Translations under genes and position numbers: made by a program
The notes under the pieces: generated by a model
Database searches by the model: none
What the model saw: only the letters and a program-made list of their open reading frames with translations
Told to the model about the DNA's origin: nothing
Shown here: one piece after another, positions 22,398 through 40,523 of the stretch
How the letters are laid out: every line of letters starts with the position of its first letter
Numbering within the stretch: the first letter of the stretch is position 1
Origin: Candidatus Aminicenantes bacterium
Lineage (GTDB): Bacteria; Acidobacteriota; Aminicenantia; Aminicenantales; UBA4085
Assembly (NCBI GenBank): GCA_026393865.1
Contig: JAPKZI010000031.1
Coordinates: 1-53,269, forward strand
DNA: 53,269 nucleotides
Direction: 5' to 3'

Positions 22398-22416
22398 CGG
22401 GCGAGCGGCGCTCTCT

Positions 22417-23728: not shown

Positions 23729-23738
23729 GGGCGCTTCC

Positions 23739-24578: not shown

Positions 24579-24611
24579 TTTTCCCCTTTCTCCTTTCGTC
24601 CGATTTATCGA

Positions 24612-25448: not shown

Positions 25449-25524
25449 GACTGAACCTCGCTCCGTCCAATTCCCCTTCCGGGCCATGTCCCTAGTCTAA
25501 TGCCGATTCGCTCAAAAAATCAAA

Positions 25525-26919: not shown

Positions 26920-26944
26920 ATCCCCCTTTCGTTCTTTCCGTGGC

Positions 26945-27739
26945 TTAATAGAGGACGTTCCTTTCGCCTTCCGTTTTCATCAGCCCTTCGAGCCGGGCGA
27001 TGATCCTTTTTTTGCGATCGAATATGGTCCCGATCTCGTCCTCGCTGAGATACGGTCGGAGCTTGCTCTCGATGATCTGGCGGGCGGTATTCTGAAGATG
27101 TTCGAAGAGGCGCCGCGGGCAGCGGTTGATGGGACAGTCGGCGGCCAGTCCCGGAGTGGGAGCGAACGCTTCCGCGAAATCCACGCGGTAGACTTTCCAG
27201 CCGGGCTGCTGAATGAGGATGTCGGCCTTGTCCAGGCACGTGTCGTTGACGAGAGCTTCGAAGACCTTGATCTCGTCCAGCCTGCCCAAGAACGCTTTCA
27301 GGTCGGGAGGCTGGAGGAGGAGCCGTTCCCGGTCGGTCTCGCTGATGCAGCCCGGCACGAAGTACTGCAAGGAGCCCTTGTTTCCCTCGATCTCCCGATC
27401 CACGGTCGGCGGAATGAACTCCAAGCCGAGGAGTTGGCTCAGCTCGTAGGCGGCGAGCTCGTATTTATACGAATCGACCGCGGGATCCGGCCGCGGGGCG
27501 TGAACGCGCTTGAACATGCCTTGCAATTTTGTTTTGCCGTCGTCCAGGGTGATCTTCCAGGGCATGGTCCGGCCGGTCGTCGCGTCTTTTTTGACGGAGA
27601 CGATGGGCCCGGTCTTGAGAAAGGCTTTGATCTCCTTGGGACTGAGATCGGCCGGCCCCGCCGCCTCAGAACGGAGGATGTCCCTCCCAAAACACGTGAT
27701 GGTCAACAAAAACGTCATCCCCAGAACGATCTTTTTCAT
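26945..27739 (-). CDS. Exported PI3K/PI4K/HipA-like kinase-fold protein, paralog 3 (degenerate catalytic loop, pseudokinase candidate)
   Basis: N-terminal MKKIVLGMTFLLTITCFG. Motifs: GMFKR, ELAAYELSQLLGLEFIPPTVDREI.GNKGSLQYFV. The catalytic loop aligns as LVNDTCLDKADILI, so Asp, Arg, His and Asn are all replaced; VDFA is retained. C-terminus GERNVLY. Confidence 0.68.
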   Translation of the reverse strand: MKKIVLGMTFLLTITCFGRDILRSEAAGPADLSPKEIKAFLKTGPIVSVKKDATTGRTMPWKITLDDGKTKLQGMFKRVHAPRPDPAVDSYKYELAAYELSQLLGLEFIPPTVDREIEGNKGSLQYFVPGCISETDRERLLLQPPDLKAFLGRLDEIKVFEALVNDTCLDKADILIQQPGWKVYRVDFAEAFAPTPGLAADCPINRCPRRLFEHLQNTARQIIESKLRPYLSEDEIGTIFDRKKRIIARLEGLMKTEGERNVLY

Positions 27740-28997
27740 GATTCACCTTCCGTCCAGCCGAAGGATGAGCGTCCCTCGCGTCACGCCCGGAATGCGCCGC
27801 CCGATCTTCAGGCGGCCAGACGCGGAACTCTCCCTTCTCGATGATCAAGGCGCTGGGATGGCTCTCCATGCCCATGAAACTCGAAATGCTCGTATCGATC
27901 ATGAAGAGGCGCTTCCCGAACCTGTTCATATATTCCATGGAAACCGCGCTCTGGGTGGGTGTATGGGCGACGACCATGGACTTGGCCCCGAGGTTGGCCA
28001 GGATCCGGCTGAACTCTTCCTCCATGAGGGCTTCGTCCTTCGAGACGAGGTCGCGGTGCCAAAGGGGCCCCTGCGGCTGGTAGACGATCCGGGTGCCCCG
28101 AAGGGACGGTTGGCGGCCATATTCGACATCATTCATGATTTTCTTAAGTTCCCTGGTCAGAACGGAGTTGATCGTTTCCAGTTTCCAGGTGGAGAACGAC
28201 TCGCTGAAGCCGGCGTGGAGAAAGACGGTGTCGTTGATCTTGATCACCGCGTTGTGCTCGGAGATCCACGTCCCATAGTCCGCGTTGAAGGTCCGGGTAT
28301 AGAGGCTCTGGGCATCCGAATCGTTCCGCAGATCCCCCCATAGTTTAGTGAGATCGCCCCCGTTTTCCGCCTTTGCCTTGAACTTCGCTTCTTTGGCCGC
28401 GACGTAGTCGGCGGGAAGGAAGGATCGGAACTGCTCAGGCGTGACGTAGCCGTAGCGAAAGGAGAGCCCGAGGATGTTCATCTCCTCATGATTGCCGACC
28501 AGGAAATGGACCATGCCGCCCGCGGCGCTGGCTTCTTTTTCGAGACGACGAATCAAATCGAAGATGTCCTTGGCGAAGTCGCCCCGATCCATGATGTCGC
28601 CGGTCTGGACGAGGTGGGTTTTGCCGCCCACCCACTGATCCTTCTCGTCGATGAGCCCCGTTCCCTTAGGGCCAAGGATCAATCGAAAACTGGCGTAGTC
28701 GCCATGGAGGTCGCCGACGGCGACGATCTTGTCGATGCCCGTCCAGAGGCACGGCTGGCCGGCGGCGGGAGGCGGCGATGGAGATAATTTCGGCTCGCGA
28801 AGCGCCGATGAGGCGGGGATGGAACGGGCGTCCGCGCAACAAATGGCGATGAGGATGAGGACCAGGCCGAGGAAAATGGGATTCCTCGACCAGTGGAAGG
28901 GCGTTGCCGGGATTCCGGCCCGCCGGAGCTTTTGCGTTCGATGGATCGTAGCGTTCTCCTTTTTCAAAACCAGCCTGCCACCGCCATAATAAATCAA
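27666..28997 (-). CDS. Signal-anchored or exported PPP-family metallophosphoesterase (Shelph-like Ser/Thr phosphatase)
   Basis: Motifs VAVGDLHGDY, QTGDIMDRGD and LVGNHEEMN. N-terminal hydrophobic segment NPIFLGLVLILIAICCADA. The start is uncertain (TTG at 28997, no in-frame ATG nearby). The 3' tail overlaps paralog 3 by 74 nt. Confidence 0.75.
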   Translation of the reverse strand: MIYYGGGRLVLKKENATIHRTQKLRRAGIPATPFHWSRNPIFLGLVLILIAICCADARSIPASSALREPKLSPSPPPAAGQPCLWTGIDKIVAVGDLHGDYASFRLILGPKGTGLIDEKDQWVGGKTHLVQTGDIMDRGDFAKDIFDLIRRLEKEASAAGGMVHFLVGNHEEMNILGLSFRYGYVTPEQFRSFLPADYVAAKEAKFKAKAENGGDLTKLWGDLRNDSDAQSLYTRTFNADYGTWISEHNAVIKINDTVFLHAGFSESFSTWKLETINSVLTRELKKIMNDVEYGRQPSLRGTRIVYQPQGPLWHRDLVSKDEALMEEEFSRILANLGAKSMVVAHTPTQSAVSMEYMNRFGKRLFMIDTSISSFMGMESHPSALIIEKGEFRVWPPEDRAAHSGRDARDAHPSAGRKVNHEKDRSGDDVFVDHHVFWEGHPPF

Positions 28998-29052
28998 TGC
29001 GCGGATTAGTCAAGGGGGAAACGGGCCGCGGGCCGGTCATTTCGACGGGCGT

Positions 29053-29081
29053 TTGACTATTTTTCGGCTTCGTATTATCTT
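29053..29081 (+). promoter_or_regulatory. Sigma70-like promoter candidate for the plus-strand ABM/thioesterase/STAS/TLC-HEAT operon
   Basis: TTGACT (29053-29058), 17-nt spacer, TATCTT (29076-29081), about 30 nt upstream of the ATG at 29114, in the divergent intergenic region. Confidence 0.3.
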
Positions 29082-29113
29082 AGTAAGCACACCGACCGAA
29101 CAGGAGGGAGCCG

Positions 29114-29458
29114 ATGTTTGCCCGAAAGATAACCTTCCTCTTCAAGCCGGAGAACATCGACGACGCCGTCAAGCTCTTCCGGACGAGCGTCATCCCCGGC
29201 GCCCGAAAAGAGAAAGGCTTCCGGGGGGCTTGCCTTATGACCGACCGCCCGACCGGAAAGAGCATCGCCGTCACGTTCTGGCGGAACGAGGCGGACGCCC
29301 GGGCCAACGAGGAGAACCTTTTTTTCCAGGGACAGCTGGTCAAGTTCCTTCCATATTTTGCCGGACCGCCGATCCGCGAAGGTTTCGAGGTCAGCGTCCA
29401 CTGCATGGAAACCCAGCTCAAGCGGAAATCCTCGAAAAAGTCAAAAAAGAAAAAATAG
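29114..29458 (+). CDS. ABM (ferredoxin-like alpha+beta barrel) domain protein with Lys-rich C-terminal tail, paralog 1
   Basis: 114 aa with AGGAGGGAG RBS. ABM-like pattern MFARKITFLFKPENIDD...GFRGACLMTD...IAVTFWRNEADARANE. Tail KRKSSKKSKKKK. Confidence 0.7.
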   Translation: MFARKITFLFKPENIDDAVKLFRTSVIPGARKEKGFRGACLMTDRPTGKSIAVTFWRNEADARANEENLFFQGQLVKFLPYFAGPPIREGFEVSVHCMETQLKRKSSKKSKKKK

Positions 29459-29536
29459 TCTGAACCCCCTTATGGGAGGAATGAGCGAAGGCCATCTTTG
29501 GCCGCCGGGCGAGCGGCCGGAAAGGAGGGAAAATCC

Positions 29537-29902
29537 ATGTTTGCCCGCATGACCATCCTCCAGGTCAAGCCGGAACGGATCGACGACGGCATCAAGATCT
29601 ATCGGACGAGCGTCGTCCCCGAAGCCAAGAAACAGAAAGGCTTCCGGGGGGCGTGTCTTTTGGCCGACCGCGCCTCGGGGAAATCCATCTCCGTCACGTT
29701 CTGGAGAAACGAGAAGGACGCCGTCGCCAATGAGGAAAGCCTCTATTACCAGGAACAGCTCGTGAAATTTCTCAGCTTGCTCGCCGGCCCGATGATCCGC
29801 GAAGGATATGAAGTCAGCGTCCATCGCCTGGATACGCCGGCCGGATCGAAACCACGACCCAATCCCAAGAAGAAACCGGCCGCCAAAAAAACCGGTCTTT
29901 GA
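29537..29902 (+). CDS. ABM domain protein with Lys/Pro-rich C-terminal tail, paralog 2
   Basis: Start set at MFARMTILQVKPERIDD (ATG 29537, AGGAGGG RBS). Collinear with paralog 1 over about 100 aa. Tail SKPRPNPKKKPAAKKTGL. Confidence 0.7.
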   Translation: MFARMTILQVKPERIDDGIKIYRTSVVPEAKKQKGFRGACLLADRASGKSISVTFWRNEKDAVANEESLYYQEQLVKFLSLLAGPMIREGYEVSVHRLDTPAGSKPRPNPKKKPAAKKTGL

Positions 29903-29936
29903 TTTTCTTCGTCCATCGTGATACGGTTGCCCTTTC

Positions 29937-30683
29937 ATGGACAAGATCTTCACGAAGACATTCCATGTCTACACGTACGAGGTGGACCACCGGGGCAAGA
30001 CGCTCCCTCTCTCGCTTCTGAATTATCTTCAGGACACGGCGGGAGACCATGCCGCAGTCCTCGGTTTTTCGATTCACGATCTCTTGAAAAAGGGCCTGAC
30101 CTGGATCCTGTCCCGGTACCATATCCGGATCGTCCGGTACCCCGCTCTGGCGGCCGATATCGCCGTGTCCACCTGGCCTTCCGGAAAACAGGGGCTGTTC
30201 GCCCTCCGCGATTTCGAGATCACGGATGCCGGGGGCGGGCTCCTGGCCGCGGCGACGAGCTCCTGGATCCTTTGGAACCTCCGCACGAAACAGCCGGCCC
30301 GGCTGGATGAGAATCTGCCCGACGACGTGACGGTCGACAGAAGGGCCCTGCCCGACGATTTCGAGGCCCTCCCCTCGATCGGAACGGCGGACCGCGAGCT
30401 TTCCTTCCGGGTCGAGATGCAGGACATCGATTTCAACAACCACGTCAACCACGCCGTCTATATCCAGTGGGCCCTCGAAACGCCGCCGGCGAGCGTCCTC
30501 CGGACCGCCCGGCCCGCGGACATCGAAGTCGCTTATAAGGGCGAAGCGTTCTACGGCGACGAGGTCGCTTCCAAGGCCCAGACGATCGGGAGCGGTCCCG
30601 CCCCGGAGTTCCTCCATGGGATCTTTCACAAGGACAAGGGGACCGAGCTGACCCGCCTCCGGACGGCCTGGGCTTGTGATTGA
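29937..30683 (+). CDS. Acyl-ACP thioesterase family protein
   Basis: 248 aa. The double hot-dog pattern typical of acyl-ACP thioesterases: HVYTYEVDHRGKTLPLSLLNYLQDTAGDHA, GLTWILSRYHIRIVRYP, VSTWPSGK..LFALRDFEI, NNHVNHAVYIQW. Confidence 0.75.
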   Translation: MDKIFTKTFHVYTYEVDHRGKTLPLSLLNYLQDTAGDHAAVLGFSIHDLLKKGLTWILSRYHIRIVRYPALAADIAVSTWPSGKQGLFALRDFEITDAGGGLLAAATSSWILWNLRTKQPARLDENLPDDVTVDRRALPDDFEALPSIGTADRELSFRVEMQDIDFNNHVNHAVYIQWALETPPASVLRTARPADIEVAYKGEAFYGDEVASKAQTIGSGPAPEFLHGIFHKDKGTELTRLRTAWACD

Positions 30684-30730
30684 CATTCGATCGTCCTTTT
30701 GATAAAAAGCTCCTAGGGAAGCTATCGTCC

Positions 30731-31078
30731 ATGATGATCAACAAGCGCGAAAAGAACAGCATCGTGATCTTCGACATCGAAGGAGAGATCCGGCGGTCGG
30801 ACATTAGCGACGTCACCCTCCACCAGCTGGTCAAGGAACAGCTCGAGGTCGGGAGAAAGCAGATCCTCCTGAACTTCGACAAGGTCGACTTCATCGACAG
30901 CTTCGGCGTGGGCGAGATCCTGGCCAGCTACATTTCCACGCACAACCTGGGAGGGAAGCTCAAGCTCGCCCGGATCTCGAAAAAGCTCTTTCTCATCTTC
31001 CAGATCACCATGCTGACGAAGGTCCTGGACATCCACGACGAGGAAGCCTCGGCCCTCCAGAGCTTCTTCAAGGATTAA
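30731..31078 (+). CDS. STAS-domain anti-sigma-factor antagonist (RsbV/SpoIIAA-like)
   Basis: IVIFDIEGEI..., LNFDKVDFIDSFGVGEIL (the DS(S/F)G phospho-Ser motif), LKLARISKKLFLIFQITMLTKVLDIHD. The ATG at 30731 is preferred over the TTG at 30680. Confidence 0.8.
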   Translation: MMINKREKNSIVIFDIEGEIRRSDISDVTLHQLVKEQLEVGRKQILLNFDKVDFIDSFGVGEILASYISTHNLGGKLKLARISKKLFLIFQITMLTKVLDIHDEEASALQSFFKD

Positions 31079-31109
31079 GAGCCGCTCCCGTCGTCTTTTG
31101 AGCCAGCCC

Positions 31110-33542
31110 ATGGCGGAACGTCGCCTGCACAAGATTCTCTCGGCCGTGGTCAAGATCAAGCCCGGCGAAGAGGTCCTGGCGGTCCTCGTCTTCTTCTATT
31201 TTTTTCTCATCACGGCGCCCTTCGGGATCGTCAAATCCCTTCGGGACGCCAACTTCCTGGACGATCTCAAAGTTGAGAACCTTCCCTATGCCTACCTATC
31301 GGCCATCCTGATCGCCGTAGCCGTTTCGTTCCACGCCAAGCTCCAATCCAGGATCTCCCGCCGGCGCCTCCTTCAATCCACGCTGGTCTTCTTCATTCTG
31401 ACCGGCCTCTTGTTCTGGGCGCTTTTCTCCACGCCGGATCATTGGAAGGGGCTGGCTCTCATTTACTGGATGTGGGCCAACCTGTTCGTCGTGACCCTGA
31501 CTACGCAATTCTGGTTCCTGGTCAACGATGTCTTCAATCCCCGGGAGGCCAAGCGGCTGATCGGCTTCTTCGGAAGCGGAGGGATTTTAGGCGGCGTCGC
31601 GGGCAACCTCCTGCCCGGATTTTTAGCCAAACCGGAGACGGCGAATAGGCTTCTGCTGGCGGCGGCGGCGTTCCTCTGCGCCTGCCTGGTCGTCGTCAGT
31701 CTCATTTTCTCCTGGCTTGAAAAGAACGAGGATCGCACCGCGTCAGTCCCCGGCCGCGAGCCGAAGCCGAATCGGAAAGAGCTCCGGCACGTCGGTCTTT
31801 GGGACAGTTTCCGGAGCGTCAGCTCCGACGCCTATCTCCGCTTGATGGCCTGGGTCGTCCTGGCCACCGGCATCGTCTCCACCTTCATCGACTGGCAGTC
31901 TAAGAGCGTCATCGCCTCCAGCCCGGAAGCCAACGTCAATTACGTCCGCTTTTTCGGCCGCTTCAACGCCGGCATCCTGGTTTTCGCTTTTCTCTTTCAA
32001 CTCGTCCTGACCAGCCGCTTCATCAACCGCTTCGGCATCCGGACCGGGCTGCTGATCTATCCTTTGATCATCCTCTTGTGCTCCGTCGGCCTTGGGATCT
32101 TCCCCGCCTCTTTGGCTTTGGCCATCGCCATTAAGGGCGGCGACAAGGCCTTGTCCTATTCCATCAACCAATCTTCGCGAGAGCTCCTTTATATCCCCGT
32201 TCTCCCGGAGATGAAATATCGAGCCAAGGTCTTCATCGACATGTTCCTAAACCGTTTTTCCAAAGCGGTGGGCGGGGTGATCCTGCTGGGCCTCATTTAC
32301 CTTGTCAAGCGCCCTCCGTTCGCCGCGATCGGCTTCGAGCCGCTCGTCTGGGTGAGCTTCGCGTCCGGCGTGTTCGTCATCGTCTGGATCGTTCTTAACG
32401 CCAGGATCAGCCGGGCGTACGTCCGGGAGGTCAAGGGCCAACTGGCGAAAAAATGGGAGCGGGCCGACGAAGTCGTGGCCGACAGGATGGACGTGGACAC
32501 GGCCAAGCTCGTCGTGGACGCGATCGAGAGCCGGACGCAGAGTTCGACCCTGTTCGCCCTCCATCTTTATGACTTGGCCCGCCAGAACAGGCTGTCGCCT
32601 GAGATCCGGAACCTCCTGGCGCTCAAGCCGATCGAACATTCTTCGTCCGACACCCGGCCGCTTTTCGAATACGACGCCTCGCCCTGGATCGCCGATTTCG
32701 AGGAACCCGGCTCGCCTGTCGAGATGGACAAGGAGATCCGGGAGATTCTGGCCCTCGAGGAATACCAAAAGGTCATAGGGGAGTATGCCGGAAAAGTGCT
32801 CGAGGATAAGGACGTCAGGTCGGAAACGGCGAGGATGGAGCTGGCCAAGGCCATCGGTCTGATGGACGGCCGATCGGCGCTCACGGACAAGCTCGACGAT
32901 CTCCTCGGCGACGATTCGGCCAAGGTCTTTCAATACAGCGCGGAATCCGCGGGAAAGCTCAAGAAAAAGGTCCATGTTCCGCTTCTGGCCAGAAAGCTGG
33001 CCGATCCGAAAACCTGCGAGGACGCCCGGTCGGCCCTGGAAAAGTACCGGGGGGGGATCGCCGGCGCTCTCTCGGATTACCTGAACGACGTCGAGGAGAA
33101 GCCTGAGATACGGAAGCAGGCCGCCTCGCTCCTCGCCCGAATCGGCAACCAGGAGGCGGCGGACGCTCTGCTCGAGGCGCTTGGACACGGTCCGGATGTT
33201 CTGAAGGCCGGTCTTATCGACGCCTTGGACCGACTCCGGTCGGAAGTGTCGGAGGTCCAGTTCAAAGACGGGGTCGTCCGGGTCCAGTTCGCCGCGGAGA
33301 TCGAAACCCTCGGGCCGGCCAAAAATCCCTCCGATCTGCTCCCTCTGTTCAAGCTCCTCGGGCTCGTCTATGACCACGAGGATATTTTCCGGGCCTATCA
33401 AAACTTGCTGAAAGGGACCAAGGATTCAATCGCCTACGCCGTCGAGCTTCTCGACCATACGGTCAGCCAGGATATCAAGGAGCGGCTGTTCCCGCTTTTA
33501 GAGAGCTTTTCCGGCCGCAGGAACGCGGGTTCCTCGTCATGA
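31110..33542 (+). CDS. TLC-family nucleotide transporter fused to a C-terminal HEAT/armadillo-like repeat domain, copy 1
   Basis: N-terminal IKPGEE...GIVKSLRDANFL and TQFWFLVNDVFNPREAKRLIGFFGSGGILGG (TLC pattern), with about 12 helices over the first 430 aa or so. A helical repeat region of about 380 aa follows, for example LLARIGNQEAADALLEAL. Confidence 0.75.
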   Translation: MAERRLHKILSAVVKIKPGEEVLAVLVFFYFFLITAPFGIVKSLRDANFLDDLKVENLPYAYLSAILIAVAVSFHAKLQSRISRRRLLQSTLVFFILTGLLFWALFSTPDHWKGLALIYWMWANLFVVTLTTQFWFLVNDVFNPREAKRLIGFFGSGGILGGVAGNLLPGFLAKPETANRLLLAAAAFLCACLVVVSLIFSWLEKNEDRTASVPGREPKPNRKELRHVGLWDSFRSVSSDAYLRLMAWVVLATGIVSTFIDWQSKSVIASSPEANVNYVRFFGRFNAGILVFAFLFQLVLTSRFINRFGIRTGLLIYPLIILLCSVGLGIFPASLALAIAIKGGDKALSYSINQSSRELLYIPVLPEMKYRAKVFIDMFLNRFSKAVGGVILLGLIYLVKRPPFAAIGFEPLVWVSFASGVFVIVWIVLNARISRAYVREVKGQLAKKWERADEVVADRMDVDTAKLVVDAIESRTQSSTLFALHLYDLARQNRLSPEIRNLLALKPIEHSSSDTRPLFEYDASPWIADFEEPGSPVEMDKEIREILALEEYQKVIGEYAGKVLEDKDVRSETARMELAKAIGLMDGRSALTDKLDDLLGDDSAKVFQYSAESAGKLKKKVHVPLLARKLADPKTCEDARSALEKYRGGIAGALSDYLNDVEEKPEIRKQAASLLARIGNQEAADALLEALGHGPDVLKAGLIDALDRLRSEVSEVQFKDGVVRVQFAAEIETLGPAKNPSDLLPLFKLLGLVYDHEDIFRAYQNLLKGTKDSIAYAVELLDHTVSQDIKERLFPLLESFSGRRNAGSSS

Positions 33543-36055
33543 ACGAAAAGCGCATGCATCGCCTCCTCAAACGGGTGGTGGATATCCAGCCGGAGGAGGC
33601 GCGGACCACGCTGCTGTTCTTTATGTATTTTTTCCTGATGATGGCGGCGGCCTACGTCATCCTTCCCTTGAAAACGTCCCTCTTCCTGAAAAAGCTCAAG
33701 CCGGAGATGCTGCCGGTGGCCTATCTCGTCACGGCCCTCCTGATGAGCTTCGTCGCGTCCTTTAATTCCCGCCTGCTCCAGAGGCTGAACCGGAAACGGT
33801 ATGTCGCTTCGAGCCTGACGTTTTTCATCGCCGGCCTCCCGGTCTTCTGGCTGTTGTTCCGGACGGGCCGGCTCTGGGTCTCGATGGTCTTCTGGTTCTG
33901 GGCCGAGGTGTTCCTGGCCATCTCGGTCATCCAATTCTGGATCCTCGTCAACGATGTCTATGCGCCGCGGCAGGCGAAACGCTTCATCGGATTCTTCGTC
34001 AGCGGCGGCCTTCTGGGAGGCGTCGCGGGATCCCTGGCCGCCTCCTTTCTGTCCCGGACCAAGGTCCTCGGCACGGAGAACCTCTTGCTGGTCTGTCCCT
34101 TCCTGCTCCTTGCCGCGCTGGGCATCCTCTTCGCCCTCCCGAAGAGCCTGGCCGAGATGCGGCCGGAGCAGGAGGTCCGGAAGAAGGGCGCCCCGAAGTC
34201 CCGGGTCGGATATCTTCAAAGCCTCCGCGTTCTGTTGAAGAGCCGCTATCTTGTCATTCTGAGCGGCGTGATGCTCTCGGGATTCGCCGTAACGAAATTC
34301 ATCGATTTCCAATTCACCCGGGCCCTCAAGGTCCGCTTCAACGACGACGAGCGGACGGCTTTCCTCGGCGTGTTCTTCACCCTGCTCTTGGTCGCCTCGT
34401 ACCTCCTCCACGTCTTCCTGACCAATCGCGTCCTGAAAGTGTTCGGCCTGCGCATCGCCCTGTTCATCGCGCCCGTCGTTCTGGCGGTCGGGGCGGTCTT
34501 CGGGTTTTTCCTGCCGGCCGGATCGGCTCCCACGATCATGGTCTGGACGTCGCTCATGCGCGGAACGGACAAGAGCCTGTCCCATTCGTTGAACCAGTCG
34601 ACGCGGGAGATCCTCTATATCCCCGTTCCGGCCGAGACCAAGGTCAAGGCCAAGGTCTTCATCGACCTGTTCGTCAACAAGTTCGCCGACGCCCTGGCCG
34701 CCCTCTTTCTGTTCCTGGCCTTCAACCTGCTTCATTTTTCCATCCCGGCCTTGAGCGGGTTGACGCTGGCCTTCATCGCGATCTGGATCCTTCTCAATCA
34801 GCGCCTCTTCCGGGAATACGTCGGGGTCGTCAAGAAGAACCTGACCCTCAAGTGGCCGGACGCGGACAAGTTCGTCTTCGACCAAGTCGATGTCGACGCG
34901 ACGAAACTTGTCTTTGATACCCTCGAGAGCAAACAGCGCAGCTCCGTGCTTTACGCGATGAACCTGATGGACCTGATCAAGAAGGACAAGCTGAGCCCGG
35001 AGCTCAAAAAGATCATCTCGATGAAGTCCTCCGAGGTCCGCGCGGGTTCGCTCAACGCTCTGATGGATGTCGGCGGAGAGGCGCTCGTTTCGGAATGGGA
35101 AGATGCCATCGAGGATAAGGACATGGACAAGGAGATCCGGGAGGTCCTCTCGCTCGACGTTTACCAGCAATTGATGCGGGACCGGGTGGAGAAGATCGCC
35201 GAAGATCAGAGCGAAGGCGCCGTCGTGTCGCAGATGGAAATCGCCAAGGCCCTGGGCATGATGGCCGCCGATGCGCCGCTCGTCCAGAACCTGTGCCGGC
35301 TGCTGAAGCATGACTCCCCTGAGGTCGTCCGCTACGCTCTGGAGAGCGCCGGCCGGCAGAAAAAACGCGAGTTCGTCCCTTTGATCCTGGCCCCTCTGGC
35401 CAGGCCGGGAACGCGGCAAGCCGCGGCCGCGGCCCTTCTCGAATACGGCGATAGGATCGCCGGAACGATCAAGGATTTCCTGGCCGACCCGAGCGAGGAC
35501 CTCAAGCTGAGACGATCGCTCCCGGAAATCCTGGCCCAGATGAAGACGCAGCGGGCCGCGGACATGCTGGTCCGGGTCTTGAAGAGGCGGGACGCGGACG
35601 TCCAGGCGGACGTCATCGAAGCCCTCATCCGGATCCGATCCTGGAATCCGAGTCTTTCCTTTTTCGGGGAGGAGATCGGCGTCGAGGTCACCTCGGCCGT
35701 CCGGAAAGCCTGCATCCTCGTGCTTGAGCTGTTCGCCGCGCGCAAGGACAGCCAGAAGGCCGCCTTGGCCGCGGAGCACGAGAACGCCCTCGGCCGGACC
35801 ATGAAACAAATCTTCGGGTTGCTCAGCCTCCTCTATCCGCCCGAGGACATGATGAGGGCCTATCAGAACTACCGGGAGGGCACGAAGAGGTCGATGGATT
35901 ACGCCCTCGAACTGCTGGAGAACATGCTCCGAAGGGACGTCAAAGACATGCTCATGCCGCTCCTCGAAGAACGGCCCCTCGACGAGAAAGCTCTGGTCTG
36001 CCGCAAGATCCTCAAGGCCCTCGAGAAGCATCCGGGCGTGGGACTTCCGACGTGA
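33539..36055 (+). CDS. TLC-family nucleotide transporter fused to a C-terminal HEAT/armadillo-like repeat domain, copy 2
   Basis: ATGA overlap with copy 1. IQPEEA...ILPLKTSLFL and IQFWILVNDVYAPRQAKRFIGFFVSGGLLGG. Collinear with copy 1 through the HEAT-like region (ILAQMKTQRAADMLVRVL). The antisense 865-aa ORF is low-complexity. Confidence 0.75.
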   Translation: MNEKRMHRLLKRVVDIQPEEARTTLLFFMYFFLMMAAAYVILPLKTSLFLKKLKPEMLPVAYLVTALLMSFVASFNSRLLQRLNRKRYVASSLTFFIAGLPVFWLLFRTGRLWVSMVFWFWAEVFLAISVIQFWILVNDVYAPRQAKRFIGFFVSGGLLGGVAGSLAASFLSRTKVLGTENLLLVCPFLLLAALGILFALPKSLAEMRPEQEVRKKGAPKSRVGYLQSLRVLLKSRYLVILSGVMLSGFAVTKFIDFQFTRALKVRFNDDERTAFLGVFFTLLLVASYLLHVFLTNRVLKVFGLRIALFIAPVVLAVGAVFGFFLPAGSAPTIMVWTSLMRGTDKSLSHSLNQSTREILYIPVPAETKVKAKVFIDLFVNKFADALAALFLFLAFNLLHFSIPALSGLTLAFIAIWILLNQRLFREYVGVVKKNLTLKWPDADKFVFDQVDVDATKLVFDTLESKQRSSVLYAMNLMDLIKKDKLSPELKKIISMKSSEVRAGSLNALMDVGGEALVSEWEDAIEDKDMDKEIREVLSLDVYQQLMRDRVEKIAEDQSEGAVVSQMEIAKALGMMAADAPLVQNLCRLLKHDSPEVVRYALESAGRQKKREFVPLILAPLARPGTRQAAAAALLEYGDRIAGTIKDFLADPSEDLKLRRSLPEILAQMKTQRAADMLVRVLKRRDADVQADVIEALIRIRSWNPSLSFFGEEIGVEVTSAVRKACILVLELFAARKDSQKAALAAEHENALGRTMKQIFGLLSLLYPPEDMMRAYQNYREGTKRSMDYALELLENMLRRDVKDMLMPLLEERPLDEKALVCRKILKALEKHPGVGLPT

Positions 36056-36115
36056 TCCGGATTCCGGTCTGTCGGCTTGAACTCGATTGTGTTATAATTC
36101 CGGCCTGAGTTGAAG

Positions 36116-37792
36116 ATGGCCACTTTATTCGTTTATCCCAAGCAAGGCGACGGCTTCTCCTTCCCCTTGAAGGACAAGCAGGTGTCCCTGGGCCGCTCGG
36201 CCGACAACGACATCCCCATCCCGGACCCGTTCAGCTCAGGCCGCCACGCGCTCATCGTTCCGTCCGAATCCGGGTTCGCGGTGCGCGACAACGGCAGCAA
36301 GAACGGCACCTTCGTCAACGGCAAAAAGGTCACGGCGTTGACTGAGCTCAAGGAGGGCGACGAGATCCTTATCGGCTCGGTCCGCATTCTGTTCGACAAG
36401 GCGCTCCAGACCAACATCGAGGTCACCGACATCCCGGCGCCCACGACCAACATCAACACCATGATCCCGTTCAAAGACATCCTGGCCAGCCCGACCTCCC
36501 GGACGACGGTCCAGGCCGCCATTCCCATCTCGGAGGTGGACCAGGTCAGGGCGGAGAACAGGATATATTCCGTCCTGAGCGAGGTCAGCAAGGCGCTCGT
36601 CCTTCACAAGCCGCTGAGCGAGCTCCTCGATCACATCATGGACCTCATCTCGGAGCACCTGTCTATGGACCGGGGGGTCCTGATGCTCAAGGAAGGGAAT
36701 CCCATCCAATTGATCCCTAAGGTCATCCGGGTCAACAACAAGCACCTCCAAAACCAGAAATTCCTGGTCAGCAAGAGCATCATCAACATGGCCTTCGAGC
36801 AGTCGCTGGCCGTCCTGACGTCGGACGCCGCGCTCGACCCGCGCTTCAAAGGCCGGGAGAGCATCATCAACTCGGGCATCCATTCGGCGATCTGCGTCCC
36901 GCTCTATAACAACAAGGAGGTCATCGGCATCATCTACGCCGACCGGATCTCCCTCCTTCAGGAGTTCCGGGAGGATGACCTGAGGCTGTTGACCCTGCTC
37001 TCCACCCTGGCCGCGATCAAGATCGAGAACGCCATGCTCATCGAGCAATCCATCGAAAAGGAGAAGATGGAACGGGAGATGCAGCTGGCGGCCCAGATCC
37101 AGAAGGATTTCCTGCCCAAGACCGCGCCGTCCTGCGATCATTTCGACATCGCCGGGAGGAACATCCCCTGTCATCAGGTCGGAGGGGACTACTATGATTT
37201 CATCCCCATCGATCCCTGCCGGATCGGCATCGCCGTGGCCGACGTCTCCGGAAAGGGCGTCAGCGCCTCGCTCCTCATGTCCTCGCTCCGGGCGGCCCTC
37301 CATTCCGAGGTCCATCCGCGCTACGAAATGGAGGTCATGGCGGAGAAGCTCAACAACTTCGTTCACCGGAGCTCGGCCATCAGCGCTTTCATCACCTTTT
37401 TCTATTGCGAGCTGAACAAGGAATCGGGCGACCTCATCTACGTCAACGCCGGTCATAATCCTCCTCTGGTCCTCAACCGGTCCGGAGATGTCCGGGAGCT
37501 GGAAAGTTCGGGGCTCTGCCTGGGGATGCTCCCCGAGATGACCTACGAGATACGAAAGGAGGCCCTCACGCCAGGCGATGTTTTCGTCCTTTACACCGAC
37601 GGGATCACCGAAAGCCGCAATAAGGCCAACGAAGAATACGGCGTTGAGCGCCTGGCTGAGGTCTGCCGCAAACACGCCGGCGACTTGGCTTCCGAGCTGA
37701 TGGACTCCGTTTTCCGCGACCTGGACGCTTTCACCGAGAAGGCGCCGGCGGCCGACGACCGGACCTTGGTCGTTCTCAAAAGAACCTCCTGA
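36116..37792 (+). CDS. FHA-GAF-PP2C (SpoIIE/RsbU-type) serine phosphatase
   Basis: FHA: VSLGRSADNDIPIPDPFSSGRHALIV...NGSKNGTFVNGKKV. Central GAF-like region. PP2C: AAQIQKDFLP, HQVGGDYYDF, IAVADVSGKGVSASLLM, NAGHNPP, VLYTDGITE. Confidence 0.85.
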   Translation: MATLFVYPKQGDGFSFPLKDKQVSLGRSADNDIPIPDPFSSGRHALIVPSESGFAVRDNGSKNGTFVNGKKVTALTELKEGDEILIGSVRILFDKALQTNIEVTDIPAPTTNINTMIPFKDILASPTSRTTVQAAIPISEVDQVRAENRIYSVLSEVSKALVLHKPLSELLDHIMDLISEHLSMDRGVLMLKEGNPIQLIPKVIRVNNKHLQNQKFLVSKSIINMAFEQSLAVLTSDAALDPRFKGRESIINSGIHSAICVPLYNNKEVIGIIYADRISLLQEFREDDLRLLTLLSTLAAIKIENAMLIEQSIEKEKMEREMQLAAQIQKDFLPKTAPSCDHFDIAGRNIPCHQVGGDYYDFIPIDPCRIGIAVADVSGKGVSASLLMSSLRAALHSEVHPRYEMEVMAEKLNNFVHRSSAISAFITFFYCELNKESGDLIYVNAGHNPPLVLNRSGDVRELESSGLCLGMLPEMTYEIRKEALTPGDVFVLYTDGITESRNKANEEYGVERLAEVCRKHAGDLASELMDSVFRDLDAFTEKAPAADDRTLVVLKRTS

Positions 37793-37889
37793 TCAGGCCC
37801 GCGGAAGCGCCCGCCCCATCCCCCAATTTATCTGGCATTTTAACCGGAAATTATTTATGATAAAGGGCCTAAATAAGAAAGTGATCGCC

Positions 37890-39050
37890 ATGAGAAAAAC
37901 GGTTTTCATCAAGTTCGTCCTCGGCTTCATGATCGGCCTGGCCTTGGGCCTCCCCGCGGCCGCTCAGATTCCCGTTCTTCCTTCGCCGCAGACGCTCCCC
38001 GTCGACGCGGCCTTCGACGAGATCGCCAAGTTCATCAGCGGGATCCCCTGCGACTCACAAGATCTGAAAACTCTCCAGGAGACGCCCGAGTGGAAGAATT
38101 TCGCGGCCGGGCTCGAGAAGAGCTGGGGAGAGCTGGAGTTGAAACGGCTGGGAGCGATGCGAACTTGGGCCCAAAGCGAGCTGGCCGGGGCGAACGCCGC
38201 GACGAAAACCCTCTTTTATCCCTTCGGCGGCCCGGACTTCCTGACGGCCTTCGATCTTTTTCCCGAGGCGGACAGCTACATCCTTATGGGTCTTGAGTTC
38301 ATCGGCAAGTTGCCGGAATTCACGCCCGGCGCCCCGAACGAAGCCAAACACGTCGAAGCCTATCTTGGGAACCTGACCGCGGCCCTCGCCGATTTCTTCA
38401 ACAAGAGCTATTTCATCACCAAGAACATGAATACGACACTGGCCCGGGACAAGGTCGACGGCGTCCTGCCCGTCATCTGCTTCTTCCTCAAGCGGACGAA
38501 CAACTCGATCTCCTCCGTCAAGCGCATCGAGGTCATGGAGAACGGCCAGCTCCTGGAATACGACTTCGCCCTTCCCCGCCAGCGCTACGTCCGGCCGTAC
38601 GGCATCAAGATCGAGTTCTTCACCAACGGAACGAACCGGCTCCGCTCGCTGACCTATTTCTCCTGCGACCTGTTTGATGTGCCTTTCGCCAAGGACAAGC
38701 CGTTCTACATCTATACGGACAGCCTGAATTTCGAGACGACCTTCGTCAAATCGGCCTCTTACCTCCTGCACTACGGGACTTTTAACAACATCCGGAACAT
38801 CATCCTCCGCAAGAGCCGCTTCATCCTGGAGGACGACACGGGGATCCCTCTTAGATATTTCAAACCCGCCGAATGGGACGCCCAGCTCTACGGCGAGTAC
38901 ATCAAGCCGGTCAGCGACTTCAAGGGCGTCGATCAGCTCGATCTCGAGGAGGCTTACAAGGACCCGGTCAGGGTCAAGAAACTGCCCTTCCATCTCGGCT
39001 ATCACTGGGGCACCAACAAGGATTCGATCCTGTATTTCAAAAGAAAATGA
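37890..39050 (+). CDS. Exported hypothetical protein (no family recognised)
   Basis: MRKTVFIKFVLGFMIGLALGLPAAA|Q signal peptide and a 386-aa body (LFYPFGGPDFLTAFDLFPEADSYILMGLE...). Its stop overlaps the start of the permease gene (ATGA at 39047-39050). An alternative start lies at 37857. Confidence 0.6.
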   Translation: MRKTVFIKFVLGFMIGLALGLPAAAQIPVLPSPQTLPVDAAFDEIAKFISGIPCDSQDLKTLQETPEWKNFAAGLEKSWGELELKRLGAMRTWAQSELAGANAATKTLFYPFGGPDFLTAFDLFPEADSYILMGLEFIGKLPEFTPGAPNEAKHVEAYLGNLTAALADFFNKSYFITKNMNTTLARDKVDGVLPVICFFLKRTNNSISSVKRIEVMENGQLLEYDFALPRQRYVRPYGIKIEFFTNGTNRLRSLTYFSCDLFDVPFAKDKPFYIYTDSLNFETTFVKSASYLLHYGTFNNIRNIILRKSRFILEDDTGIPLRYFKPAEWDAQLYGEYIKPVSDFKGVDQLDLEEAYKDPVRVKKLPFHLGYHWGTNKDSILYFKRK

Positions 39051-40426
39051 ACGCCCGGACGAAGTTCAGCCTGACCACGGCCACGGCCCTTGTCATCGCC
39101 AACATGGTCGGCACCGGCGTGTTCACCAGCTTGGGTTTCCAAATCGGTCTGGACGCCTCGGGAAACCCGGTGATCTCCTCCGGGCTGGCCCTGATCTTCC
39201 TCTGGATTCTGGGCGGAGCCATAGCTCTCTTCGGCGCGCTGACCTATTCCGAGGCCGGCGTCCTCTATCCGCGCTGCGGCGGCGAGTACCATTACCTGAC
39301 CAAGATGTACCATCCGGTTGTCGGTTTCCTCGCCGGGTGGATCTCCTTCCTCGTCGGGTTCGCCGCGCCCGTCGCGGCGGCGTCCATCGCTCTCGGCAAC
39401 TATCTCCGCAGCGCCCTGAGCCTGCCGGAGCATCTCGCCGGAGCCCTCTCCTTCCTCAAGACCTCGTCGCTCTTCGCCATCGCGGTCATTTTCGTCCTGA
39501 CCGCGATCCATGCCACGGACAAGATGCTGGGCGCCCGGTTCCAGAACGTCATCACCTTGTTCAAGATCCTCTGCATCCTGGCCATGGTCGGCCTCGGCTT
39601 GGTCGTCGGTAAATCGACGCACTTGTCGTTCGCCCTGTCGAGGGGGGCCGTCCATGACATTCTGAGCCCGGCCTTCGCCATCTCCATGTTCTTTGTCTCG
39701 TTCGCCTACTCCGGCTGGAACGCGGCCGCCTACATCGCCGGGGAGATGGAAAAACCGTCGAAGAACCTGCCGATCAGCCTGATCACAGGGACGATCTTCG
39801 TCATCGTCCTGTACGTTCTGCTCAACTTCGCCTTTCTCTATACCGTGCCGCTGCCGGAGCTGGCCGGCAAGCTCGAGGTGGGTTTCATCTTCGCGACCAA
39901 GGTCTTCGGGACGCAGGGCGGCCGGATCATGGCCGGGATCATTGCCTTCCTGCTCCTGTCCAGCATCAGCGCCATGATCATCGCCGGGCCCCGGGTCACC
40001 CGGGTCATCGGCGAGGATTATCATCTGTTCCGCTGGATGAGCCGGACGACGCGCAAGGACATCCCCGCCATCGCCATCCTCACCCAGGGTTTGCTCTCGA
40101 TCGTATATATCCTCACTTCGACATTCGACCAGGTCATCGTTTTCATCGGGTTCACCCTCAATCTGTTCACGTTCATGACCGTTTTGGGGGTGATGATCGT
40201 GCGAAAGAAGCACCCGGAGCTGCCGCGGCCGTACAAGACCCTCGGCTACCCCGTCGTGCCGATTCTGTTCCTGCTGATCAACATCTGGATCCTGGCCTAC
40301 GGCCTGCTTTATCGGACGAAGGAATCCCTGGCCGGGTTCGGGATCACGGCCGCCGGACTCCTGGTCTATGGGATCAATAAGAAGCTCAGGCCGAATGACG
40401 TCCGGCCCTGCGAATATAAATCGTAG
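39047..40426 (+). CDS. APC-superfamily amino acid permease
   Basis: Start set at MNARTKFSLTTATALVIANMVGTGVFTSLGF (typical APC N-terminal motif). About 12 helices. Motifs YSEAGVLYPRCGGEYHY and FVSFAYSGWNAAAYIAGE. Confidence 0.85.
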   Translation: MNARTKFSLTTATALVIANMVGTGVFTSLGFQIGLDASGNPVISSGLALIFLWILGGAIALFGALTYSEAGVLYPRCGGEYHYLTKMYHPVVGFLAGWISFLVGFAAPVAAASIALGNYLRSALSLPEHLAGALSFLKTSSLFAIAVIFVLTAIHATDKMLGARFQNVITLFKILCILAMVGLGLVVGKSTHLSFALSRGAVHDILSPAFAISMFFVSFAYSGWNAAAYIAGEMEKPSKNLPISLITGTIFVIVLYVLLNFAFLYTVPLPELAGKLEVGFIFATKVFGTQGGRIMAGIIAFLLLSSISAMIIAGPRVTRVIGEDYHLFRWMSRTTRKDIPAIAILTQGLLSIVYILTSTFDQVIVFIGFTLNLFTFMTVLGVMIVRKKHPELPRPYKTLGYPVVPILFLLINIWILAYGLLYRTKESLAGFGITAAGLLVYGINKKLRPNDVRPCEYKS

Positions 40427-40523
40427 CTGCTCAGGCAGACAGTATTCAGGAGTCAGAATTCAGAATGGCCTGTTTTCAGAAAAAGTGATGCGTCCCCGTT
40501 TTGGTTAAGGGCTTTTCTCCCGC

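Follow-up and report, generated by a model that had tools for sequence, protein, structure and literature searches.

A partner-switching-type gene set linked to NTT-HEAT transporters in Aminicenantes: a candidate for transporter control by a phosphorylatable STAS protein

In a 53,269-nucleotide contig of a Candidatus Aminicenantes bacterium (the window), a STAS protein, two transporters, and a sensory phosphatase are encoded in a row at positions 30731 to 37792, which raises the question of what a partner-switching-type set of genes controls when its closest neighbors are transporter genes. According to our analysis, a partner switch with a membrane transporter as its output is a well-supported candidate at this locus.

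All four genes lie on the forward strand. The first (30731 to 31078, counted from an ATG, the maximal ORF beginning with a TTG at 30680) encodes a STAS-domain-only protein of 115 amino acids with a phosphorylatable Ser57 in FIDSFGVGEILASY. It is followed after 31 nucleotides by NTT-HEAT transporter 1 (TLC1; 31110 to 33542), which shares an ATGA overlap with its 37% identical paralog, NTT-HEAT transporter 2 (TLC2; 33539 to 36055, assigned by Pfam), and, 60 nucleotides further on, by an FHA-GAF-PP2C phosphatase of the SpoIIE/RsbU type (36116 to 37792, assigned by Pfam), the presumed phosphatase of phosphorylated STAS. Judging from the ATGA overlap, TLC2 is translationally coupled to TLC1, and such close spacing, with a start codon overlapping a stop codon, points to co-translation of the set. 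ORFs and spacing match the four co-directional, tightly packed genes described in an earlier note, made from the sequence alone. The extent of the operon given there stands for these four genes but overlooked a co-directional trio immediately upstream (29114 to 30683), two ABM-like genes and an acyl-ACP thioesterase gene, which may extend the transcription unit beyond four genes; the trio is retained in the closest relatives only. Scanning positions 22300 to 40600 for promoters and terminators returned 10 promoter-like sites where 4.6 would be expected, and no clear signal at the operon borders. An Rfam search of the window found no riboswitch or other RNA family, and a hint at the ligand from this side is therefore absent. 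Genes were called by a GC3-based procedure in the window and from stop-to-stop ORFs with phmmer in low-GC loci.

The STAS protein matches Pfam PF01740 (E 1e-10) and, with 54.3 bits, passes the cutoff (53.45) of the NCBIfam model of anti-sigma factor antagonists, TIGR00377; its closest solved relatives are SpoIIAA and RsbV. Ser57 is the Ser of a DSFG motif and aligns with the phospho-Ser of SpoIIAA, in agreement with the antagonist-type reading of the earlier note. This residue is unchanged in 72 of 72 STAS orthologs, and the surrounding FIDSFGVGEILASY motif is invariant, including in secondary STAS and NTT-HEAT pairs (see below). The STAS gene is the most conserved of the cluster, with a mean pairwise identity of 78% versus about 50% for the transporters, a constraint in keeping with multiple binding partners.

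The phosphatase carries FHA (E 2e-19), GAF (E 1e-16), and SpoIIE/PP2C (PF07228; E 1e-50) domains, so that the sensory phosphatase noted earlier beside the transporter fusions is borne out in both domains and order. Its catalytic motifs are conserved across 50 orthologs, which keep DVSGKG, TDGITE, and DDxT as well as the FHA motifs GR/SxxH/NG, while the GAF domain is the best conserved of the protein (67%). The presumed STAS kinase is an RsbW-type GHKL serine kinase or anti-sigma-like protein of 133 amino acids encoded about 7 kb from the STAS gene (23327 to 23728, forward strand). This protein, which the earlier note had already pointed out as RsbW-like, matches HATPase_c_2 in Pfam (E 3e-27), has RsbW (6m36) among its best PDB matches, and on reading of its sequence contains an N-box (E..N) and G1 and G2 motifs, with DSGxxFD and GGLGIYL; NCBIfam RsbW matches are weak, with all RsbW equivalog models below cutoff. 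The gene was found in 28 of the 47 Aminicenantes loci whose upstream flank extends over 9 kb or more, and in one rearranged locus (L085) it is placed directly 3' of the phosphatase gene in the same operon.

The locus accordingly encodes a STAS antagonist with a phosphorylatable Ser/Thr in a DS(x)G loop, an RsbW/SpoIIAB-type GHKL serine kinase, and a SpoIIE/RsbU-family PP2C phosphatase. This resembles the RsbV-RsbW-RsbU and SpoIIAA-SpoIIAB-SpoIIE systems of Bacillus, with their phospho-Ser STAS protein, small GHKL kinase, and sensor-bearing SpoIIE-family phosphatase. Unlike in Bacillus, no sigma gene is associated with the set, the STAS gene is translationally linked to transporter genes, the phosphatase sensors are FHA and GAF domains, and the kinase gene sits beside genes for exported kinase-like proteins. 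Consistent with what had been reported from the first inspection, Pfam searches of the called genes detected no sigma factor gene in the 53-kb window, and the same holds for two other Pfam-annotated loci of the STAS type (L085 and L087).

The transporters belong to the NTT-HEAT family, which is very large and ranges over many phyla (cyanobacteria, Chlamydia, and oomycetes among them) and whose function has been a question since 2017 (PMC5381601). TLC1 matches Pfam TLC (PF03219; E 7e-22), MFS_1, and HEAT_2, and TLC2 matches TLC (E 3e-17) and HEAT_2; the TLC scores of 78 and 63 bits compare with a gathering score of 21, while scores with the NTP/NDP exchanger model TIGR00769 (68 and 60 bits) lie far below its cutoff of 387. 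In TLC1, an MFS/NTT membrane domain (residues ~1 to 450) is followed by a disordered linker (506 to 533) and a HEAT-like solenoid (536 to 800), which is deemed cytoplasmic because it is located downstream of an even-numbered membrane domain. The HEAT/armadillo-like nature of the C-terminal domains, on which the earlier note had staked its proposal beforehand, held up: the AF2 model of TLC1 has a pLDDT of ~90 across residues 536 to 800, and a profile search against solved structures retrieved a HEAT-like alphaRep (E 1e-23), together with NTT1 (E 1.5e-27). In Foldseek, TLC1 adopts an NTT-like fold, with NTT1 of C. pneumoniae (9j3n) and AtNTT1 (9j3l) on top and the best four matches all NTT1 (9j3n, 9j3l, 9j3m, and 9j3j; target-normalized TM-scores ~0.55 to 0.74). 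The fusion of an N-terminal NTT domain to a C-terminal HEAT domain is that of the NTT-HEAT clade, and full-length alignments to two distant members, P0376 and P0360, gave 38% and 26% identity. A conserved S/T-P-E motif preceding the HEAT linker was considered as a phosphorylation site and dropped, being equally a standard helix N-cap.

With NTT1 of Chlamydia and Protochlamydia and AtNTT1 of plastids, the transporters share the fold and, in the HMM alignment, the conserved signature blocks EAKR, S.RE..YIP, and K.K..ID. They differ from characterized NTTs in their identity of 18 to 21%, in falling below the curated cutoff, in the extra 350-amino-acid HEAT domain, and in their hosts, which are free-living, nonparasitic bacteria. 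Going by this distant NTT homology, the substrate is most likely an adenine nucleotide or another nucleotide, a tentative assignment in a clade that is itself uncharacterized (PMC5381601). PamNTT1 strongly prefers ATP import (PMC1951785).

The arrangement proved to be conserved. When we inspected 80 species-level Aminicenantes loci, whose transporters are 37 to 86% identical to TLC1, the STAS gene was directly upstream of NTT-HEAT in about 70 of 72 evaluable loci and the PP2C gene directly downstream in 60 of 64, so that the linkage by which the proposal was to stand or fall is present in related genomes. Of 64 evaluable loci, 54 have the transporters as a tandem pair and 10 have a single copy; the linkage is retained where one transporter is left, as in L053, L063, L070, L071, L079, and L085. 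Gene order persists down to 37 to 40% transporter identity, while close relatives alone keep the flanking genes (ABM, thioesterase, U397, and permease). Locus L085, with a transporter 38% identical, is rearranged with respect to the window, yet STAS, NTT-HEAT, FHA-GAF-PP2C, and RsbW genes are still together in one operon. Furthermore, two metagenome-assembled genomes (L057 and L064) harbor a second, co-duplicated STAS and NTT-HEAT pair devoid of a PP2C gene of its own, and one of the two genomes also shows the primary locus (L009). The loci linked to STAS come from Aminicenantes only, plus two related-looking loci of unknown taxonomy, so that part of the synteny reflects common descent.

A different regulator was found when 79 distant NTT-HEAT loci from other lineages were compared. 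[quoted passage not shown] The two patterns are complementary, and two different cytoplasmic sensors therefore appear to serve one transporter family. Fusion proteins of the NTT-HEAT-cNBD type have been reported by Major, Embley & Williams (2017, PMC5381601), with whose family our proteins share the two-domain architecture, the common tandem or paired copies, and an adjacent small cytoplasmic sensor; unlike there, the sensor is in none of the 80 Aminicenantes loci a cNBD, its place being taken by STAS, PP2C, and RsbW. A fused cNBD, as read from the sequences, indicates a regulator acting physically on the transporter, and the mutual exclusion of STAS/PP2C and cNMP-binding regulators lends independent support to regulation of the transporter. 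The metagenome scan used a query of 10 sequences; the distant alignment of 38 sequences contained no conserved stretch.

On balance we favor, with moderate confidence, a partner-switching-type phospho-module of STAS, RsbW-type kinase, and FHA-GAF-PP2C that is dedicated to the NTT-HEAT transporters and not to a neighboring sigma factor. In the mechanism that we propose, the kinase would transfer an ATP-derived phosphate to Ser57 of STAS, and the phosphatase would remove it once its GAF domain (by a small ligand) and/or its FHA domain (by a phospho-Thr protein) is engaged. Depending on its phosphorylation, STAS would then dock onto the HEAT solenoid on the cytoplasmic side of one transporter or both, or else would strip the RsbW-like protein off that solenoid, and docking would switch transport open or closed. 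In other phyla the cNBD would regulate NTT-HEAT, and Aminicenantes would have swapped in the STAS module. The logic suggested for the family is that of a cytoplasmic HEAT platform served by interchangeable sensors, either a cNBD or a phospho-STAS switch.

The same genes could instead form a classical switch with its output at a distance, in which the RsbW-like protein serves as anti-sigma factor to a sigma factor whose gene lies in another part of the genome and the NTT-HEAT proteins are either co-expressed cargo of a stress or energy response or a sensory "transceptor" acting through HEAT. We hold this to be possible but unlikely. It draws on the kinship of STAS with SpoIIAA and RsbV and its passing of the antagonist model, on the RsbW-like kinase, and on a genome coverage of 53 kb, and in Rsb systems the genes of the switch often lie apart from one another and from that of the sigma factor. 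Against it, Pfam detected no sigma factor gene in the window, L085, or L087, STAS stays with NTT-HEAT through rearrangements and was co-duplicated with it in the company of neither kinase nor phosphatase, and the fusion of cNBDs in other lineages fits a signal directed into the transporter better than one directed outward (PMC5381601).

Some distant loci speak for another arrangement, in which NTT-HEAT or another protein of the cluster would be the direct phospho-substrate and STAS a constitutive subunit, as in MlaB/MlaF or SulP/SLC26. An FHA-GAF-PP2C 30% identical to that of the window adjoins a 26% identical NTT-HEAT in L091, HATPase_c and REC-PP2C genes flank NTT-HEAT with overlapping start and stop codons in L090, and a HAMP-PP2C gene flanks it in L099, all three loci being devoid of STAS; the target of the phosphatase might accordingly be the transporter or some other protein. 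The secondary STAS and NTT-HEAT pairs, which have no PP2C gene of their own, point the same way. We nevertheless regard direct phosphorylation as improbable, since an invariant Ser in an invariant FIDSFGVGEILASY motif is unexpected in a purely structural subunit and since STAS or STAS-like proteins are known substrates of RsbW-type kinases and SpoIIE-type phosphatases. Mere inheritance of gene order within one bacterial class, with the genes working independently, might be invoked because the 80 genome loci that show the arrangement are without exception from Aminicenantes. This is very improbable in view of the persistence of the order to such low transporter identity among differing flanking genes, of the cluster that was rearranged yet kept together in L085, of the short gaps and overlapping codons implying co-translation, and of the complementary STAS and cNBD patterns.

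Small cytoplasmic proteins that bind a transporter and tune its activity are known from MlaB (in MlaFEDB), GlnK-AmtB, and SbtB-SbtA. For neither the STAS domain of SulP/SLC26 nor MlaB is cycling between an RsbW-type kinase and a PP2C known, and to our knowledge SulP/SLC26, MlaFEDB, AmtB, and SbtA, which are other classes of transporters, include none with a HEAT-solenoid docking platform. The interaction of STAS and transporter proposed here would be similar to these cases and to SulP/SLC26 STAS, and it is deduced from linkage and co-duplication. The C-terminal STAS of SLC26 is a domain serving a transporter, and the review of STAS-only proteins that covers it contains no example of a stand-alone STAS controlling one (PMC8256260). 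Partner switches with outputs other than a dedicated sigma factor include SypE-SypA of Vibrio fischeri, HsbR-HsbA of Pseudomonas, SiaABC, and BtrUVW of Bordetella (PMC10120452, PMC6482189, PMC7647112, PMC8256260), in which, as here, a STAS or STAS-like protein is cycled by kinase and PP2C; their outputs are biofilm, diguanylate cyclase, secretion, and RpoS pathways, and none is an NTT/MFS-type transporter. The novelty is in the wiring only. The claim of an undescribed output for a partner switch accordingly stands for the wiring to transporters and has to be narrowed in general, non-sigma outputs being already known elsewhere.

The membership of the unit as first described stands for the four-gene core, but the conserved cluster is larger, including besides the RsbW-like gene a block on the reverse strand that had been overlooked. 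This block encodes a third NTT as well as FAM20-like kinases predicted to be exported and a phosphoesterase of the PPP type. K279 (23739 to 24578) is a predicted exported protein of FAM20/PI4K-like kinase fold, with an intact NEDRHxxN catalytic loop, an IDHS motif, and a signal peptide terminating in AFAQF. Its Pfam matches are weak (PI3_PI4_kinase, HipA_2, and FAM198), but its family profile retrieved FAM20B, FAM20A, and FAM20C structures from the PDB (E 6e-6 to 0.03, with FAM20B at 6e-6), and its AF2 model (pLDDT 86.6) gave Fam20C and Fam20 as best Foldseek matches (TMq 0.64), followed by PI4KII. Its paralog U291 (24612 to 25487) has a signal peptide and an NADRTxxN loop, so that the two share N(E/A)DR(H/T)xxN and IDHS, the catalytic loop and the metal-binding Asp of this kinase fold. 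A further paralog, U264 (26945 to 27739), is linked to both by phmmer cross-matches and may be a pseudokinase because the DRH catalytic loop is missing. In all 33 aligned members of the FAM20-like family, as well as in the homologs of L083, L085, and L087, an N-terminal hydrophobic segment ends in A-x-A-Q-F, which we read from the alignment as putative signal peptides for export.

Between these genes, the third NTT/TLC transporter (25525 to 26919; 464 amino acids) is HEAT-less, with a Pfam TLC E value of 3e-11 and 48 bits with TIGR00769, under the cutoff; it is kept upstream on the minus strand in 30 of 47 loci and also occurs in L085 and L087. The PPP-type metallophosphoesterase (27666 to 28997; start codon uncertain) is predicted to be exported, having an N-terminal hydrophobic anchor, and matches Pfam Metallophos (E 1e-10) and weakly ApaH; its sequence reads GDLHG, GDIMDRG, and GNHE. 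In 24 of 30 loci the FAM20-like block borders directly on the gene for the RsbW-like protein, and metallophosphoesterase homologs adjoin NTT-HEAT in 50 of 80 Aminicenantes and 21 of 79 distant loci. In both lineage groups, then, NTT-HEAT keeps company with a HEAT-less NTT, FAM20/PI4K-like kinases that bear signal peptides, and a PPP-type metallophosphoesterase predicted to be exported, with all of which the transporters would operate jointly. The NTT-HEAT family hereby gains conserved partners in the kinase-like proteins, the phosphoesterase, and the second type of NTT; linkage of the kinase-like proteins or the phosphoesterase, like that of STAS or PP2C, is not reported in PMC5381601, and our literature search found no paper connecting STAS, PP2C, or FAM20-like proteins to NTT-HEAT. 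PADLOC assigned no gene to a defense system, the kinase-like proteins giving very weak matches to candidate families.

In this context the transporters might be the ATP source of a phosphorylation system outside the cytoplasm. Tentatively, and with considerable doubt, we envisage NTT exchangers that run outward, carrying cytoplasmic ATP into the periplasm to fuel the FAM20-like kinases, two of them apparently active and one pseudokinase-like by their motifs, with the exported PPP-type phosphatase in opposition. ATP export is costly, which is why the cytoplasmic HEAT tail would act as a gate. Most phyla would read this gate through a cNMP-binding protein, Aminicenantes through the STAS switch, with the RsbW-type kinase and GAF/FHA-PP2C reporting energy or ligand status. 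The FAM20 kinases of the secretory pathway offer a parallel in their signal peptide, FAM20/PI4K-like fold, and pseudokinase-like paralog (compare FAM20A and FAM20C), here in accessory proteins genetically linked to an ATP/ADP-exchanger-like transporter; unlike them, the proteins of the cluster are bacterial, of about 280 amino acids and 15 to 18% identical, and their kinase activity is putative. Lumenal ATP for FAM20 kinases is supplied by an ER/Golgi ATP importer, to which the parallel is one of analogy. If ATP export were true, it would explain how phosphorylation is powered outside the cytoplasm, in a compartment usually deemed ATP-free, and would represent a prokaryotic counterpart of ER/Golgi ATP import for FAM20C. 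In L085, a domain homologous to U264 is fused to the metallophosphoesterase. The broader NTT/NTT-HEAT family, by profile search, comprises 28,322 representative clusters at an E value of at most 1e-3.

The four-gene core lies at 30731-37792 on the plus strand of the window, whose G+C content is about 60% and in which a strong GC3 signal marks real genes. STAS (30731-31078 from an ATG; the maximal open reading frame starts at a TTG at 30680) is followed after a 31-nt gap by TLC1 (31110-33542), which shares an ATGA overlap with TLC2 (33539-36055), and, after a further gap of 60 nt, by the PP2C phosphatase gene (36116-37792), as the tight co-directional spacing described in the earlier note had it. 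Every domain named there was also recovered with Pfam, namely, STAS in the first protein, TLC, MFS_1, and HEAT_2 in both transporters, and FHA, GAF, and SpoIIE in the phosphatase, while the match of the protein encoded at 23327-23728 (+) to HATPase_c_2 agrees with its designation as RsbW-like. The STAS protein scores just over the NCBIfam cutoff for the anti-sigma-factor-antagonist superfamily; among solved structures it is closest to SpoIIAA and RsbV, and Ser57 of its FIDSFGVG motif aligns with the Ser that is phosphorylated in SpoIIAA. Upstream of STAS and on the same strand are two small ABM-like paralogs with Lys-rich C-terminal tails (29114-29458 and 29498-29902), followed directly before STAS by an acyl-ACP thioesterase gene (29937-30683). 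Directly downstream of PP2C is a gene for a 397-amino-acid signal-peptide protein (37857-39050), which is kept in nine related loci and has no match in Pfam or NCBIfam. The next gene encodes an amino-acid permease, whose start probably lies later than that of its maximal open reading frame (38873-40426), since the latter overlaps the preceding gene by 178 nt.

The linkage proposed in the earlier note holds across Aminicenantes genomes. By its closest relatives, the source organism itself is a Candidatus Aminicenantes bacterium (Acidobacteriota). When one genome was scanned for each GTDB species, 80 loci were obtained, all from Aminicenantes and with transporters 37 to 86% identical to TLC1; their open reading frames were searched with the window proteins. 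Among evaluable loci, STAS is directly upstream of the transporter in about 70 of 72, and PP2C is directly downstream in 60 of 64. Tandem NTT-HEAT pairs occur in 54 loci and a single NTT-HEAT gene in 10, where the order STAS-transporter-PP2C is retained. STAS is clearly missing from only one evaluable Aminicenantes locus (L073); its apparent absence from L003 and L005 is a filter artefact, and the sequence of L077 starts within the transporter gene. On either side of the core, the ABM-like and thioesterase genes (upstream) and those for the 397-amino-acid protein and the permease (downstream) are kept in the nearest relatives only, so that conservation is confined to the four core genes. No core member is as constrained as STAS, whose mean pairwise identity across 50 genomes is 78% (minimum 65%), compared with 48 to 52% for the transporter domains, 59% for FHA, 67% for GAF, and 59% for the PP2C domain. 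Ser57 is unchanged in 72 of 72 STAS orthologs, and both the metal-binding motifs of PP2C (DVSGKG, TDGITE, and DDxT) and the phospho-Thr-binding motifs of FHA are kept in the phosphatase orthologs. Two metagenome-assembled genomes (L057 and L064) contain a second STAS and NTT-HEAT pair without a PP2C of its own. These secondary pairs form their own subclade, being 83% (STAS) and 71% (transporter) identical to each other, compared with 73% and 53%, respectively, to the primary locus of the same genome; STAS and transporter were therefore duplicated and retained together.

The RsbW-like gene was found in 28 of the 47 Aminicenantes loci with upstream flanks of 9 kb or more, and in 24 of 30 RsbW-bearing loci it adjoins the conserved minus-strand block convergently (median gap, 7 nt). 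In the homologous locus L085, where a lone NTT-HEAT is 38% identical to TLC2, the operon comprises STAS, NTT-HEAT, FHA-GAF-PP2C, and HATPase_c_2, with the same minus-strand block after it; the arrangement of a further locus, L087, is that of the window. Thus, all three partner-switch components, STAS, RsbW-like kinase, and PP2C, travel with NTT-HEAT. The window also carries a complete phosphate-uptake set (15567-20589; two PstB, a permease, a PstS-like PBP_like_2, and PhoU) some 3 kb upstream of the gene for the RsbW-like protein, and PBP_like_2 genes are present in L081 and L090 too.

That the C-terminal domains of the transporters are HEAT-like, as the earlier note supposed, is borne out by an AlphaFold2 model of TLC1 (60-sequence alignment; mean pLDDT, 82.7) together with profile comparison. 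In the model, the N-terminal part up to about residue 450 is an all-helical membrane domain, residues 506-533 form a disordered linker, and residues 536-800 are stacked paired helices of 12 to 15 residues with pLDDT of about 90. At the top of the Foldseek ranking are structures of the NTT1 ATP/ADP translocators from Chlamydia pneumoniae and Arabidopsis, followed by other MFS transporters; the family profile matches NTT1 via the membrane domain (E 1.5e-27) and designed HEAT-like alphaRep proteins via the C-terminal domain (E 1e-23). Judging from MFS topology, from the even-numbered MFS/NTT helix bundle that precedes them, and from a central loop rich in K/R, the HEAT-like domains should be cytoplasmic. 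The substrate may be nucleotides, to which homology and the shared signature blocks point; both TLC1 and TLC2 score far below the NCBIfam cutoff for NTP/NDP exchangers. An exhaustive profile search returned 28,322 representative clusters at E <= 1e-3, of which about 30 are Aminicenantes-type (800 to 860 amino acids), followed by proteins of about 920 and about 1050 to 1100 amino acids, sizes that correspond in Pfam-annotated matches to NTT-HEAT and NTT-HEAT-cNBD, the latter bearing a cyclic-nucleotide-binding domain. NTT-HEAT fusions were described as monophyletic and widespread, with one Aminicenantes sequence among them, by Major, Embley and Williams (PMC5381601), who make no mention of STAS or PP2C linkage; none was found in a wider literature search either.

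A different regulator accompanies NTT-HEAT in distant lineages. Counted by seed searches in 79 distant loci from a metagenome scan and in the 80 Aminicenantes-type loci, an adjacent or fused cNBD is present in 59 and none, respectively, STAS in none (narrow STAS seeds) and 71, and SpoIIE-type PP2C in 1 and 63. Because these counts are complementary and Pfam detected no STAS and 14 cNMP_binding domains among 150 small open reading frames flanking distant transporters, the STAS and cNBD regulator types are mutually exclusive beside NTT-HEAT. The cNMP-binding protein is encoded by a small gene immediately downstream of NTT-HEAT in L081, L083, L088, L089, and L091 and is fused to the transporter in L090 and L092. 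Such repeated fusion argues that the neighboring cNBD regulator acts physically on NTT-HEAT and, by analogy, the STAS module may do likewise. Paired NTT-HEAT genes are common in distant lineages, in tandem (L083, L093, L099, and L118) or head-to-head (L127 to L168), and often only one partner bears a fused cNBD, a hint that the transporter may have two subunits.

A functional tie between the STAS/RsbW/PP2C module and the NTT-HEAT system, in whichever direction, is likely, and we lean toward the view that the module has the transporter as its direct output. On the reading that the evidence favors most, the module would serve the NTT-HEAT system specifically and would regulate the transporters at the post-translational level via the HEAT domain. 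The RsbW-like kinase would phosphorylate Ser57 of STAS, and PP2C, controlled by GAF and FHA, would reverse this; STAS might then dock on the HEAT solenoid in a phospho-dependent manner, or the kinase might be competitively released from it, with transport altered as a result. As the earlier note stated, the window has no sigma factor gene; Pfam scans of its called genes detected none, and no Hanks-type kinase either. We regard as unlikely both a distal sigma factor as the output and a transporter serving as the sensor. It seems quite improbable that the transporter is phospho-regulated directly and that STAS is a constitutive subunit of it. The phosphatase may act on the transporter as well, since PP2C genes are present in three loci with no STAS gene: L091 (6985-15484), a cNBD-type cluster with DUF2252 in which the FHA-GAF-PP2C shares 30% identity with that of the window along its entire length and the transporter is 26% identical to TLC2; L090 (9147-14361), where HATPase_c and REC-PP2C genes overlap the NTT-HEAT-cNBD gene by their start and stop codons; and L099 (14569-16836), a distant cNBD-type NTT-HEAT cluster with a HAMP-PP2C. 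A gene order merely inherited, with no functional coupling, is hardly credible.

STAS domains attached to transporters are already known. The earlier note took the gating of nucleotide transport to be an undescribed output of a partner switch; the wiring to NTT-HEAT is new, but non-sigma outputs as such are not, being known from SypE/SypA, HsbR/HsbA, and SiaABC, and cNBD regulators of NTT-HEAT fusions had likewise been described (PMC5381601). New are the specific and strongly conserved connection between NTT-HEAT and a phospho-STAS module, the mutual exclusion of that module and cNBD, and the linkage of the whole NTT-HEAT family to a PPP-type phosphoesterase and to FAM20-like kinases predicted to be exported. 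The finding has solid comparative evidence behind it and bears on the question of the role of NTT-HEAT proteins.

The kinase-like and phosphatase-like genes form the minus-strand block (23739-28997), comprising the paralogs K279 (23739-24578), U291 (24612-25487), and U264 (26945-27739), the HEAT-less NTT/TLC gene TLC3 (25525-26919), which Aminicenantes loci retain in their accessory block, and a metallophosphoesterase gene (27666-28997). The three paralogs have a FAM20/PI4K-like kinase fold and, like all 33 aligned family members, predicted N-terminal signal peptides ending in A-x-A-Q-F; the catalytic-loop motif N(E/A)DR(H/T)xxN and the IDHS motif are kept in K279 and U291, and the loop is absent from U264. 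Pfam returned only weak PI3_PI4_kinase, HipA_2, and FAM198 matches, while the family profile matched FAM20B, FAM20A, and FAM20C in the PDB (E 6e-6 to 0.03), and an AlphaFold2 model of K279 (pLDDT, 86.6) was most similar to Fam20C and Fam20 (TMq 0.64), then to PI4KII. All homologs of the family, which number more than 4,000, are annotated as hypothetical. The metallophosphoesterase carries three PPP-family motifs (GDLHG, GDIMDRG, and GNHE), a weak ApaH match, and a hydrophobic N-terminal anchor; its start codon is uncertain because its open reading frame and the upstream gene share 74 nt. Within counts bounded by contig ends, kinase-like homologs adjoin NTT-HEAT in 51 of 80 Aminicenantes and 22 of 79 distant loci and phosphoesterase homologs in 50 of 80 and 21 of 79, and since both families do so in both sets, NTT-HEAT is part of a gene set, conserved across phyla, that includes predicted exported kinase-like and phosphatase-like enzymes. 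In L085 and L091, the metallophosphoesterase is fused to a FAM20-like domain.

The whole system can be read in two ways, one of which is regulated nucleotide import, with the predicted exported phosphoesterase serving in scavenging. The other and more novel one, regulated ATP export feeding the predicted exported FAM20-like kinases, is rather doubtful, with the caveat that the characterized Protochlamydia NTT1 strongly prefers ATP import, reverse exchange being negligible (PMC1951785). Elsewhere in the window, three large open reading frames with gene-like GC3 (3701-5464, 9637-12231, and 46071-47495; 587, 864, and 474 amino acids) have no Pfam match. Many public records of metagenome-assembled genomes with an Aminicenantes-type locus (L007, L009, L010, L012 to L014, and many others) are titled "uncultured Eubacteriales" or "Clostridiales"; these titles are probably taxonomic mislabels.
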